Made by a program: the position numbers and the translations under genes. From Podarcis pityusensis (lineage: Eukaryota), in the NCBI GenBank assembly GCA_964106645.2, contig OZ067051.1: a DNA stretch of 64,000 nt, one strand, 5' to 3'. The stretch's first letter is position 1. Each line of letters starts with the position of its first letter. The notes beneath the pieces are model-generated. The model had not been told where the DNA came from. It was given only the letters and a program-made list of their open reading frames with translations, and searched no databases. Positions 4,246 through 37,281 of this stretch are shown here, one piece after another.

Positions 4246-4621
4246 GCGGGACGCTGGTGGCGCTGTGATCTAAACCATTGAGCCACTTGAGCTTGCTGAT
4301 CAGTAGGTCAGCGGTTTAAATCCCCGCGACGGGGTGAGCTCCCGTTGCTTGGTCCCAACTCCTGTCGACCTAGCAGTTCGAAAGCACACCAAAAAGTACA
4401 AGTAGATAAATAGGTACCGCTCTGTTGGGAAGGTAAACAGTGTTTCCTTGCGCTGCTCTGGTTTTGGTGTTCCGTTGCGCCAGAAGCGGCTTAGTCATGC
4501 TGGCCACATGACCCAGAAAAACTGTGGACAAACACCGGCTCCCTCGGCCTGTAAAGCGAGATGAGTGCTGCAACCCCAGAGTCGTCTGCGACTGGACTTA
4601 ACTGTCAGGGGTCCTTTACCT
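4246..4621 (+). mobile_element. Sauria SINE (Squam1), full length
   Basis: Head GGGACGCTGGTGGCGCTGTG, body AGTAGATAAATAGGTACCGC, tail GGGGTCCTTTACCTTT. 14-bp TSD TTAGAAGTCATGTC at 4232-4245 and 4622-4635. Confidence 0.93.
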
Positions 4622-6613: not shown

Positions 6614-6940
6614 GTCTAAACCACTGAGCCTCCTGGGCTTGCCAATCAGAAGGTTGGCGGTTCGAATCCCCACGGCGGGGTGAGCACCTGTTGCTCGGTC
6701 CCAGCTCCTGCCAATCTAGCAATTCGGAAGCATGCCAAAAAAGTGCAAGTAGATAAATAGGTACTGGTTTCAGTGTTCTGTTGTGCCAGAAGCGGCTTAT
6801 TCATGCTGGTCACATGACCCAGAAAAACTGTCTGTGGACAAACACCGGCTCCCTTGGCCTGTAAAGCGAGATGAGCGCTGCAACCCCAGAGTCGTCTGCG
6901 ACTGGACTTAACTGTCAGGGGTCCTTTTCCTTTACCTTTT
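6614..6940 (+). mobile_element. Sauria SINE, 5'-truncated with an internal deletion
   Basis: B box GGTTCGAATCC. Near-identical to the 4246 copy over its 3' half. Tail GTCCTTTTCCTTTACCTTT. Confidence 0.92.
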
Positions 6941-7226
6941 AGACTTACTGAACTAAAAGTTTACTGCAGATGTCTAAAACAGGTCTAAAACAGTACAGCA
7001 AGGGTGCCTGCCTAATGTCAATAGGCAGAGAGTTCCAAAGCATAACTGGAGCTGCTACACTGAAAGATTGACTCCTTGCCAATGCTGAACAATATATAGC
7101 ACTTTCACAGTTCCATAGATGGAAGCCATTAAATAGGTATATATGGGGCAGTCTCTCAAGTGAACTGGTCCCAAGCCACTAAAGATTTTATATATGAATA
7201 CTAAAAACCTGAACTTGCCCCAAAAA

Positions 7227-7388
7227 TCAGGTAGGTAGCTGTGTTGGTCTGATGCAGTAGAAATATATACAAAAAATTAAAAAATTGTCCAGTAGCACCT
7301 TAAGAGACCAGCTAAGTTAGTTCTTAGTATGAGCTTTCGTGTGCATGCACACTTCTTCAGATACACTCAAATACACTCAGATACACTT
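7227..7388 (-). mobile_element. Short non-autonomous Penelope-like (Neptune-type) terminal-repeat unit
   Basis: Plus-strand motifs GTAGCTGTGTTGGTCTG, TCCAGTAGCACCTTAAGAGACCA, GAGCTTTCGTG...CACTTCTTCAGATAC. 12-bp TSD TTGCCCCAAAAA at 7215-7226 and 7389-7400. Confidence 0.85.
7327..7364 (-). ncRNA. Minimal type I hammerhead ribozyme motif
   Basis: Minus strand: GUAU-CUGAAGA-A-GUGUG(CAUG)CACAC-GAAA-GC-UC^AUAC. Core boxes CUGANGA and GAAA, helix I GUAU/AUAC, helix II hairpin, helix III reduced to palindromic AGCU. Confidence 0.75.
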
Positions 7389-8447
7389 TTGCCCCAAAAA
7401 GAAAGTGGTATCCAGTACAAATATTTGAGCAGAGATGTAATATGCTGACAGGAGATTTCACTCTTGGCAGCAACTGTTGTGCAGCATTTTTCATTAACTG
7501 CAAGGTAAGTCTTACATAGAGTACATTGCAGCAATTCAGTCTTCACATTACTGATGGCTGGACTACTATAGTCAAGCTATGATGGTCCAGGAATAGTTGA
7601 TGAAGCTAGTAAAGATGCTCCTAGTTCTGAGGGCCTCCAATGACAAAGCTGGATCCAGGAGCAACCCAGGTTGCATACTTGCTCAGAGGGAATGCAACCC
7701 CTTCCAGGGCAGGTAGTTGGCCTGTTTCTCAGACACATGAGCCACTCAGGCACAGCACTTGCTAGCTAAACCAGCCTTTGACTGTGCCCACCTGACATTT
7801 TCAAGAGGAGGAGTGGGAGAAGAGACCCCAGCAAAGCTGACCTTGGTCCCATGAAGAGTGTTTTTTTAAATTTTCCTCCAAAGTGAGAGGCATGAAAGCA
7901 GAATCATACTACGCTGTAGTACAGTAATGTGGGTTGCTTATGACCATTTACATCTGGCTAGCTTGTGAGAGTTTACTGACCTCGTGTATCATTAGAGATT
8001 GGAGTAATATTTTACGTAAACAGAATTCCACTCCATTAATATTATGCTGACTTGCTGGGTTCTTACACATTTTCTCTCTCTCTCTCTGTGTGTGTAAATA
8101 ATTTACATATTCATGCTTCTCTTAAGTTTTGCTAAAGCAGGTGGAAATGGGTACAATACAATACAAATATTTACTGAGATAAAAGAAGAATCAAATTCCT
8201 TTTGGTGCAGTAAACTTCAGAGTAGCTCTTTCTTGCTTAGCCAAGGATTTTGCAATATTTATAAAAAATAAAACCAAAGTTTGTTCTCTCTTTTAGCACA
8301 TGCACTTGAGAAACATTATATACAGTTTGCGGTCAACCCACAATTTGACGACGTAAATTAAACTGGGGAAAATAACTAAAGATGTGAAGAGAATATGTTC
8401 AAGTTAATGTTAATAATTTTCATTATTAGCACCTGTGCAATATTTGC

Positions 8448-10720: not shown

Positions 10721-10856
10721 CAGGCACCCCCAAATTTGGCCCTCCAGATGTTTTGGGACTATAACTCCCATCATCCCTAGCTAACAGGGCCAGTGGTCAG
10801 GGATGATGGGAATTGTAGTCCCAAAACATCTGGAGGGCCAAGTTTGGGGATGCCTG
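10721..10856. mobile_element. 136-bp hAT-type MITE
   Basis: Long near-perfect inverted repeat CAGGCACCCCCAAA...TTTGGGGATGCCTG. 8-bp TSD GTATAAAT / GTACAAAT. Confidence 0.92.
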
Positions 10857-14477: not shown

Positions 14478-14613
14478 CAGGCAGCCCCAAACTTGGCCCT
14501 CCAGATGTTTTGGGACTACAACTCCCATCATCCCTAGCTAACAGGACCAGTGGTCAGGGATGATGGGAATTGTAGTCTCAAAACATTTGAAGGACTGAGT
14601 TTGCCTATGCCTG
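14478..14613. mobile_element. 136-bp hAT-type MITE, same family as 10721
   Basis: CAGGCA...TGCCTG termini. Perfect 8-bp TSD GTGTAGAA at 14470-14477 and 14614-14621. Confidence 0.93.
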
Positions 14614-16939
14614 GTGTAGAATATAGATTTATTTCAAACTACTAAAGTAGTTACCCTGTTACCCAATGAGAATAAATGATTTTGAGGAAAAGGTCAGATA
14701 ACGCTTTAGGAACATTTGGGGGAAAATGCACACACAAAAAATAAGAAAGCTATACCTTACTGTCACTCTCTGACCCTCCAAAGAGAAATGTCTTGATGAG
14801 TCAGTTGAGGAATCAAGTCTCAAGGAAACAATATACAAATACTGGGAGGCTACCAACAGACCCACAGGGGCTTGCAGCTACTTTTATTAATTTGATGGTC
14901 TTTATACTTTTCTGGCCTAGTAACACCATTTTCTGTTCTCACAATCACAAAGCTCCTTGGCTTCACAAGTCTCAAGAACAAAGCTCCTTGGCTGCAACTT
15001 TTCACAGCCCAAGTGGGGTGAAAAAGGGGCCCTGTGACAGCCCAGCTGCACAATGTTCCTCAAATTAGTGGAATGTTCAGTCTGGGCTTGGGACACTGGA
15101 GGCAGCCACAAGATAAGCAGGTGTTGTAAATTTGGGCCTGCTTGCAGTTACTGAGGGAGAAAGCTGTTTTCTCATAGCCCAGGTCTACCCAGAAGTCCAA
15201 GCTTTTCACACGGACCAAAGTTTTACCCAAAGGTTCCCCAATTTAACACATGTCCAAAGTATGAAACACAAAACCCCAAGTTCTATATAGGCATGGTGCT
15301 GTATCCCAAAGTTCTGACAGGAGTGTTTTCTTCTGAGCCAATGCTGTGCTGTCCAGCTCTTGATGAACTACAACTCAGTCTTGACCGGTGACTCGTGGTC
15401 AGGGTTAATGGGAGTTGAAATATGGCACCTAAAACCAAGATGCTACTGTAGCAGACACTTTTCCCCCCTTGGATACAACACATGGTTGGTTTAGGCATCT
15501 AGCACATTTTTGTTTCCCTAGGAAGCATTTGTATTATCACTTGCTTAAACATTGTTGTTGAAAAGTAGGTAGGCTATTGGAATGGAGGAACAGTTGAATG
15601 GTGACACTGGGTCATATTTCTGTGTGGCTTTTTAATTAGAACTACTTGGGATTTTTGGGTATAATACTTTGCATGATGAGAACATTTCAGCGTTCATTAC
15701 AAAGAAGACACTGCAAGTGTATAAAGACATTGCATTCTCCAACCATCAAGCACAATCATATAAAACATGATTTTAAGATTGAGAAGTTAGCGACAGAAGA
15801 GAAATTTGCAGGGTTCCATTTAAACTATTATTCTTGAAATGTTCCCTGCAGAGTAGGATGAAGCCACAGGTGAAAGTAGACCTTCTTCACACAATAGGAA
15901 TTAAACTAATCTTGCTACCTGTAGGCAGTTTTTCCTCCCATTGTGATTGTTCTGTGGCTTGATCCAAAGAGTAAGAAATCAAAATGACAAAGCAGTACCA
16001 TTGTCTGAACCACCATCTATTTCTTGAGGACCATGCAAATTTATACTGCTGGGTTATTCAAATGCTTTCATATCTATTTATCAGCAGAAGGTACTGTAAT
16101 AAAAATAATAAAAGATGTTACAGTAGCTACCACCTAGCCCTTTGGTCATTGTCCTGAAAGGAAATTGTTCTGTACCCCTTTATGGCTATTTTTGAATAAA
16201 TATTTTATTCCATTTTGTGGAAACTGCATAGAGACTTTTTGTGATTAAGCCATAGAAGTCTTCTAAATAAATAAAATACATACTCTGCAGACAAGGCCTT
16301 AGAACAGATAATTAAAAACATAACATGGTTCCTATGAATGAAGATTATGGTTTATTTAGTTACTTCAACAGCTTGTTTTTGGTGATCTCTGATGGCAGCA
16401 CTTATTTGACCTGCCGGAGGTTTGAGATTAGAACCCTGTTATGTTCAATTTGTCTTCTCCAACTGCTAACTCTTGCCAGGTAGTTTTATGACAGTTTATC
16501 CACAAAGCATTGAGAACAAATCTGCGATGCCCCAGAACTTGCAAACAGCTGCTTATCTAATGAACATTTTCCAGTGTTGCACCCACTTTGTCTCCTGTTT
16601 TACATTCACACAACAATGTTAATACCTTGGATAGATAAAAAGAAAGCAACTAGATAATGAGAAAAGTTGTTAATGGATAGTGTTTTGTTGCAATACTGAA
16701 CATCCCTAAAGAATTTCAACACTAAAAAGTAATTCAGTATTTAAAAATAAAATAAATTGCCAAACAGCAGCAGCAGTAACAAAAAATTAAATGAAGAAGG
16801 AAAAAAACCAAAAATAGAATACAAGAACAAACTCAAACACCACGCAATGCCAACAGTGATAATTGTAAAACCGAACAAATTTGACACTGATTTTGTGAAT
16901 CACTCTTTCCAAATTATTACTGTATTCCAGTTCCTAATA

Positions 16940-36777: not shown

Positions 36778-36819
36778 TCAGGTATTTAGCCATGTTGCTC
36801 TGGTCCAGTCGAAATAAAA

Positions 36820-36854
<35 letters not shown>

Positions 36855-37281
36855 ATTTCCAGTAGCACCTTAAAGGGGTAAAGGGACCCCTGACCATTAG
36901 GTCCAGTGACCAACTCTGGGGTTGGGGTGCTCATCTCACTTTATTGGCTGAGGGAGCCCGCGTACAGCTTCCGGGTCATGTAGCCAGCATGACCAAGCCG
37001 CTTCTGGCGAACCAGAGCAGCGCACGGAAACGCCGTTTACCTTCCCGCCGGAGTGGTACTTATTTATCTACTTGCACATTGTCGTGCTTTCGAACTGCTA
37101 GGTTGGCAGGAGCAGGGACCAAACAACGGGAGCTCACCCCGTCGCAGGGATTTGAACCGCCGACCTTCTGATCGGCAAGTCCTAGGCTCTGTGGTTTAAC
37201 CCACAGCGCCACCCGCGTCCCCTAGTAGCACCTTAGAGACCAACTAAGTTTGTTCTTGGTATAATCTTTCGTGTGCATGCA
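36778..37281 (-). mobile_element. Second Penelope-like terminal-repeat unit, interrupted by a SINE and truncated inside the hammerhead
   Basis: TAGCCATGTTGCTCTG..(AAAT)n..TCCAGTAGCACCTTA[SINE]GAGACCAACTAAGTTTGTTCTTGGTATAATCTTTCGTGTGCATGCA matches 7227-7350. Confidence 0.8.
36873..37222 (-). mobile_element. Sauria SINE, full length
   Basis: Minus-strand head GGGGACGCGGGTGGCGCTGTGG, B box GGTTCAAATCC. 12-bp TSD AGTAGCACCTTA at 36861-36872 and 37224-37235. Confidence 0.93.

Follow-up and report, generated by a model that had tools for sequence, protein, structure and literature searches.

The analysed window, a stretch of 64,000 nucleotides from Podarcis pityusensis (contig OZ067051.1), contains at positions 7227–7388 a short copy of a Penelope-like element (PLE), composed of the 3′ part of the pLTR and the tail, with its sense direction on the minus strand. 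This insertion is bounded by identical 12-mers (7215–7226 and 7389–7400), which constitute the longest direct repeat flanking it and bear out the clean 12-bp target-site duplication (TSD) of the preliminary description. It stands solo between the TSDs, not in tandem.

Read in the sense direction, the insertion begins with two extra 10-bp re-copies of the element's 5′ end plus two A bases (7367–7388). These are followed by the family-wide 5′ end cluster (7364–7367; −4 to −7 from C3), a putative RNA start, a minimal type I hammerhead motif (7327–7364), a T-rich run (7261–7288), which is the second common 3′ end of family copies, and the element's tail end (7227–7251), which in tandem copies continues into the start of an ORF (L058, L111, L116). 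Three 10-bp repeats are present in total (7357–7387), as described earlier, but they do not all precede the ribozyme, since the first is the ribozyme's own 5′ arm.

Positions are numbered below from C3 (7360 = 0), so that the predicted cut is +29|+30. The minus-strand hammerhead consists of CUGAAGA (7360–7354), an extra A (7353), the helix II palindrome (7352–7339), GAAA (7338–7335) and then G-C-U-C with C17 at 7331, and is closed by a 4-bp helix I (7364–7361 paired with 7330–7327). The minimal hammerhead originally recognized on this strand (CUGAAGA / GAAA / CUC, extra A) is thereby confirmed, and the cut predicted between 7331 and 7330 agrees with the layout of the motif. A loose core pattern (regex) matched seven sites in the window, of which the match at 7327–7364 is the one belonging to the repeat family; an Rfam scan of the window identified no hammerhead family at E≤1. 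In MFE folds, which were not counted as evidence, helices I and II form in the 46-nt motif and the whole unit folds otherwise. The predicted cut falls inside the insertion, at distances of 58 nt (5′ end) and 104 nt (3′ end), so that it coincides with neither end and cleavage at 7331|7330 would split the unit in two. The copy is 89–93% alike to the nearest relatives listed in a whole-unit search of the 1.5-Gb genome, and the locus itself is an ordinary decayed insertion.

A second, decayed member of the family is located on the minus strand at 36778. Its tail side (36778–36872) is separated from its 5′ part (37224–37281) by a SINE-like insert of ~350 bp (36873–37223, minus strand), which has its own 12-bp duplication (36861–36872 / 37224–37235) and which is a putative Sauria SINE. 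A TSD of the second member itself was looked for, and no clear one was found. The earlier designation of this sequence as a second copy holds for family membership but not for the same unit, since the member is split, is ~75–90% alike to the 7227–7388 unit and stops inside helix II, without the CUGAAGA core.

SINE-like elements occupying the same site of the PLE pLTR (~+68) were observed in this second member and, using a strict pattern, in at least five of 230 loci (L175, L212, L341, L349 and L377, where L341 and L377 are halves of one locus); a short match with the 3′ end of the SINE may have primed its insertion at this site. Two more diverged relatives (71–78%) of the SINE-like element are present in the window at 4256–4620 and 6617–6928. 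The window also contains two near-identical 84-bp hairpins (10747–10830 and 14504–14587), which match Rfam mir-5408 below the gathering score on both strands and look like a MITE-type repeat, and a GC-rich, long hairpin-like stretch (2298–2484) with a weak MIR533 match on both strands.

Family identity and the relationship of short and long copies

Comparative analysis revealed that upstream of long copies the shared sequence runs through the pLTR into a GIY-YIG C-terminus. A search with the GIY-YIG fragment yielded 150 of 150 scored matches, several of them in frames of 900–950 codons. Two loci, L111 and L112, contain 910-aa ORFs, in partial tandems, and these ORFs begin in the tail, immediately downstream of the hammerhead. 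Pfam analysis of the 910-aa ORF identified RVT_1 (438–586; E 3e-12) and a weak GIY-YIG domain (808–855; E 2e-4, just below the curated cut-off). A CX4CxxC motif was read directly between RT and GIY-YIG in the 910-aa protein (P0001); a CX2-5CxxC linker is the criterion of the Neptune/Nematis clade in the accessible text of PMC8557442. The unit corresponds to the pLTR end and the tail of a PLE assigned to the Neptune type, the Neptune/Nematis assignment resting on the linker motif and the choice of Neptune rather than Nematis on vertebrate distribution. The Penelope origin proposed in the preliminary description is thus supported by the long copies leading into the GIY-YIG C-terminus and by the RT/GIY-YIG ORFs, and the ORFs of L111 and L112 represent the partner with the same repeat for which a search had been suggested as a check.

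The family combines the features of EN+ PLEs: a single ORF with RT and C-terminal GIY-YIG, partial tandems, a hammerhead in the pLTR, an inverted 5′ partner (90 of 139 tail-anchored insertions) and an optional tail (27 of 90 hammerhead-anchored segments). No match was obtained in a Pfam search with a 61-aa GIY-YIG fragment, in a PDB sequence search with P0001, or by tblastn of P0001 against the window. The intact ORFs belong to younger subfamilies, ~80% alike to the window unit. The window's own subfamily is joined to GIY-YIG ends in L006, L013 and L071 and to the ORF start in L058. Random sampling of 764 kb, including the window, yielded eight pLTR-bearing loci and two ORF fragments, from which the family was roughly estimated at 15,000–20,000 loci per genome; the eight loci are too few for end statistics. 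In the young subfamilies (L111, L112, L113, L115, L116) the ORFs are intact or nearly so and copies are 96–100% alike, and the family is therefore probably still active, or was so recently.

The relationship of short and long copies was examined in a tree that included 50 short copies and 37 long ones (six of 93 candidates, being unlabelled, were left out). Short and long copies mix in every subfamily and two identical sets contain both; starred branches of this poorly resolved tree force at least six changes between the short and long labels. Mild clustering of labels was observed (21 changes vs 25.7 after shuffling, with 18 of 500 shuffles equally low). The window copy groups with short copies and with the long copies L006 and L071. 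A lineage of their own, in which short copies beget short copies as in a SINE, is not seen in this low-resolution tree.

One young insertion (L318/L347/L348; contig C1 near 6,052,000) is composed of an inverted half and a head-to-tail series of three short units (two of −4..+68 and a last one of −4..+82), all with the complete hammerhead; it is a possible seed of a retrozyme-like tandem.

Ends of family copies and of family RNA

The ends of family copies were counted with exact probes of 26–27 bases, which gave 7,517 and 11,254 genome matches, both lower bounds on the number of segments. The base preceding −4 is non-template in 1,494 of the 7,517 (G in 913, A or C in 581; exact genome counts) and the template is lost at −7 in another 1,429, which brings the two classes together to 2,923 cases (39%). 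At the cut, a purine replaces the template pyrimidine in only 76 of 11,254 matches (exact genome counts), the probe being blind to ends preceded by a pyrimidine, the inclusion of which would about double the 76. Thirty of these 76 loci were read: 11 resemble point changes, having ≤3 mismatches over 12 nt, whereas 19 look like true ends.

A second, tail-anchored sample, in which 5′ length plays no part in copy selection, drew on two sets of exact matches (1,552 and 474), from each of which the first 70 along the genome were taken; all lie on contigs C1 and C2, and the flank duplicate L266 was dropped (n = 139). L265 and L266, ~13 kb apart on C1, have their flank in common, which represents a local duplication. 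When both halves of an insertion are considered, its most 5′ base lies at −6..−2 in 54 cases, −1..+7 in 19, +8..+19 (inside the helix II palindrome) in 28, +27..+33 in one, −12..−7 in nine, beyond −12 in 19 and elsewhere in nine, with BLAST ends accurate to ~2 nt and the +8 class inflated by the palindrome. The sense half by itself reaches −6..−2 in 25 of 139, compared to 54 when either half is counted. The 3′ ends of the hammerhead-anchored segments lie in the T-run in 44 of 90 cases, in the tail in the 27 mentioned above, and elsewhere in 19. The whole-unit search, biased towards copies reaching the hammerhead, was excluded from the end counts, and automatic TSD calling over 1.5 kb, which returns many chance 7–9-mers, was not counted. 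Extension by >100 nt upstream was observed in 17 of 30 T-preceded (template-preceded) copies; long copies are thus common, indicating that ordinary 5′ truncation is at work as well. Random copy lengths, which the preliminary description had named as telling against it, are not what is observed: in both the exact counts and the tail-anchored sample, the 5′ ends cluster 4–6 nt upstream of the core. PLE copies starting at the 5′ edge of the hammerhead were not found in the literature searched, and subscription papers, Repbase/Dfam notes and supplements may hold such a report.

Long copies carry a TATA-like box and a CCAAT motif, which begin 33 nt and 87 nt upstream of −4, respectively. A strict TATAWAW match was obtained only for the older-type L004, the young copies having a one-base variant, and CCAAT/TCAAT occurs at ~−87 in seven of ten pLTRs examined. 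The unit itself contains neither motif, its 5′ end being downstream of both. We infer from the sequence that the 5′ cluster (−4 to −7) corresponds to a transcription start; the promoter of D. virilis Penelope is internal and TATA-less (PMC2377424), and the unit may have an internal promoter of that kind. G occupies −5 in 61% of cases, compared to the 30% expected, an excess likened to that at the 5′ end of capped L1 RNA (PMC11702581, accessible text). In simple G-preceded copies with the TSD abutting the start, the G is target-derived in three and clearly extra in one, and of the first 100 listed members of the −7 class, 86 have T as their non-template base (counted by eye). Since target microhomology explains three of the four clear cases and the −7 class mostly has T, a G copied from a cap is only hinted at.

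Of 60 copies that end at −4, 10 have re-copies of the first bases immediately upstream, compared to 3.4% of random windows. The 10-nt re-copy of the type seen at 7367–7388 occurs in three places genome-wide, i.e. in the window and at two loci of younger subfamilies; such re-copies are thus made at insertion rather than inherited. Sequence of the ORF start (+134..+175) is joined to the −4 start in three of 134 distinct 5′ junctions (strict test), which indicates that part of the templates extend from −4 into ORF sequence, as expected of the element mRNA. Template jumps land repeatedly near +160..+175, ~40 nt into the downstream ORF start (L058, L158, L320/L352, L354, L365; fillers in L210 and L247), and this zone may represent either the 3′ end of an RNA or a third site of initiation.

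Raw reads of four RNA runs (X21–X24), chosen by the species label of the best-matching genomes, were examined; in these fragmented libraries a cap is undetectable. At 97% likeness to the window, depth is zero on the flanks (7089–7223 and 7386–7700), so the reads on the window unit come from other copies. In X23 and X24, which belong to one study, molecule ends with adapter attached accumulate at 7330 (12 ends at depth 53 and 9 at 43; 7 at 35 and 9 at 36), with a rough Poisson expectation of 0.2–1.3 ends per base; no pile-up at 7330 was observed in X21 or X22. The position is one base off the ideal 7331, unless the T is an adapter overhang, as library kits may leave. The pile-up occurs in both first-mate orientations, though the libraries look stranded. 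It is an ambiguous lead for cleavage, as the cut could also arise during library preparation, and suggests, from two of four runs, that some family RNA may be cleaved. Of the RNA signatures previously proposed as a check, ends within one base of the cut were therefore found, albeit ambiguously, while a joint at the cut, such as a circular molecule would have, was not listed in any of the four runs.

On L111, 80–88% of reads continue into unlike sequence, as for copies within host transcripts, and at 90% likeness no beginning or end of reads was listed at the inferred start or the cut in the four runs. A back-joint of 193 nt, connecting the ORF start to −7 (L111:4920 and 5112; seven reads in X21 and 12 in X22, single-cell), may be a genomic jump copy or a circular RNA.

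Origin of the short copy and comparison with known systems

The reading that we favour, with a probability of roughly 0.7, is that the 7227–7388 copy was generated when the PLE enzyme started internally in the tail of an uncut RNA and copied it to the RNA 5′ end. The GIY-YIG endonuclease would nick the target with a 12-nt stagger, giving the 12-bp TSD, and RT would start inside the tail and copy ~140 nt. Because the tail is also present at the 5′ end of the element mRNA, internal initiation would yield exactly such a product. At the RNA end, the cDNA would re-anneal 10 nt back, twice, giving the two extra repeats. Two such products would make the common head-to-head pairs and one product a solo copy like that in the window, the hammerhead being carried along uncut, although it may cut family RNA at another stage. 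The resulting copy, in effect a retrocopy of the PLE leader, lacks the upstream promoter motifs and is probably dead. For lizard Poseidon, the accessible part of PMC11167929 describes initiation of RT within the RNA, at the tail, together with extension of both target strands; hammerhead mutants of that element insert normally, cleavage being unnecessary. The pile-up of read ends at 7330 leaves the conclusion that inserts derive from uncut RNA unchanged.

The most serious alternative, though an unlikely one, is ordinary 5′ truncation with a structural stop, in which RT stalls or is released at the hammerhead and the cluster reflects RNA structure. Heavy 5′ truncation is usual in PLEs (PMC8557442, accessible text), −4 coincides with the outer edge of helix I, 28 of 139 insertions get no further than +8..+19, within the helix II palindrome, and the passage of the site by 17 of 30 T-preceded copies is also compatible with truncation. 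However, a stall would be expected at the 3′ foot of a helix, and by −4 both helices would already have been copied; many of the +8..+19 ends are fold-back joints whose partner reaches −6..−2. The −4 end is moreover sharp and lies at TATA distance, and the re-copying and jumps observed there are what a template end would give.

The preliminary description had proposed movement as a SINE-like monomer processed by self-cleavage. Such a SINE-like or retrozyme-like monomer would be transcribed, released by the hammerhead as a dimer, possibly circularized, and re-inserted by the PLE protein. An intact motif, a fixed-length class of copies, read ends at 7330 in X23 and X24 and the rare short tandem at one locus (L318/L347/L348) would all accord with it, and non-LTR retrozymes have been proposed to derive from pLTRs (10.64898/2026.07.22.740005, accessible text). 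The end counts contradict this self-cleaving unit: the template base at the cut is lost in just 76 of 11,254 matches, and one of 139 tail-anchored insertions ends within 3 nt of it. The copies are not units bounded by the cleavage site, and cleavage would split the window unit in two. Tandem units each with a hammerhead amount to one three-unit tandem among 90 hammerhead-anchored loci, the window unit has neither the TATA-like and CCAAT motifs nor a tandem array, and short copies form no separate lineage. In addition, the 5′ repeats are private to the window copy and no back-joint at the cut was listed. Movement by self-cleavage is accordingly considered very improbable. Hardly any weight is given to a splice acceptor either, by which an intron would end just before helix I and copies would derive from spliced RNA, in the manner of D. 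virilis Penelope. Long copies do have a CAG-terminated pyrimidine tract immediately upstream, and the Penelope intron end maps to helix I (PMC4209133, accessible text), but the AG would put the joint at −5 whereas the main stop is −4, TSDs or inverted halves rather than a common upstream exon abut the start, and no splice-type joint was found there in the four RNA runs.

Family end statistics address how PLEs integrate and what their hammerhead does. The counts provide a direct genomic argument, against the cleave-and-circularize model, that cut RNA is not the template, and from them a start site, a product of ~140 nt and a signature of re-copying are predicted. Building on initiation in the tail of uncut RNA, it may tentatively be speculated that Neptune PLEs shed a strong-stop-like product, i.e. 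leader-only copies of their capped mRNA, thousands of which would record the start site to the base, with the hammerhead 34 nt downstream cutting the RNA in cells and removing its cap; since cut RNA is almost never inserted, the hammerhead would then act as an off-switch. The read ends at the cut, if true, would be a sign of cleavage by a vertebrate PLE minimal hammerhead in cellular RNA, which was sought without success in PMC11167929.

Several known systems, compared here through the accessible parts of the cited papers, resemble the family. Metazoan PLE minimal hammerheads (PMC4209133), known in turtle and snakes, share the short helix I, the extra base before helix II and the palindromic 15.2–16.2; their helix II has 7–8 bp, compared to 5–6 bp here. 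The same source describes solo and opposite-strand minimal hammerheads, probably from truncated PLEs, and proposes self-cleavage with circles as templates, which the insert ends observed here do not show. Non-LTR retrozymes (PMC7229834; 10.64898/2026.07.22.740005) are likewise non-coding, pLTR-related and of similar size, with a type I hammerhead, but they are tandem hammerhead units with monomeric or circular RNA, whereas the insert described here is solo with the cut inside.

Adineta Pen2a, with its relatives (PMC3846280), shares a pLTR with TATA and Inr-like motifs, an ORF start in the pLTR plus tail, palindromic inverted junctions, solo pLTRs and TSDs (8–10 bp there). In that element, solo pLTRs without TSDs are ascribed to recombination or deletion and inversions to self-priming on antisense RNA. 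With EN+ PLEs of the Neptune/Nematis type (PMC8557442), the family has in common RT plus GIY-YIG, the CX4CxxC linker, partial tandems, an inverted 5′-truncated partner, an optional tail and the pLTR hammerhead; variable 5′ truncation is described there, whereas many copies here stop at one point before the hammerhead. A different clade is represented by the green anole element Poseidon PAc (PMC11167929), for which RT starts (3′ ends) rather than 5′ ends have been mapped. No RNA-seq read with an end at the cut was detected in that work, in contrast to the ambiguous pile-up seen here in two of four runs. As in the family described here, its ORF starts beside the hammerhead and there are two 3′ end zones, and its both-strand extension fits the inverted pairs, with cleavage unnecessary for insertion.
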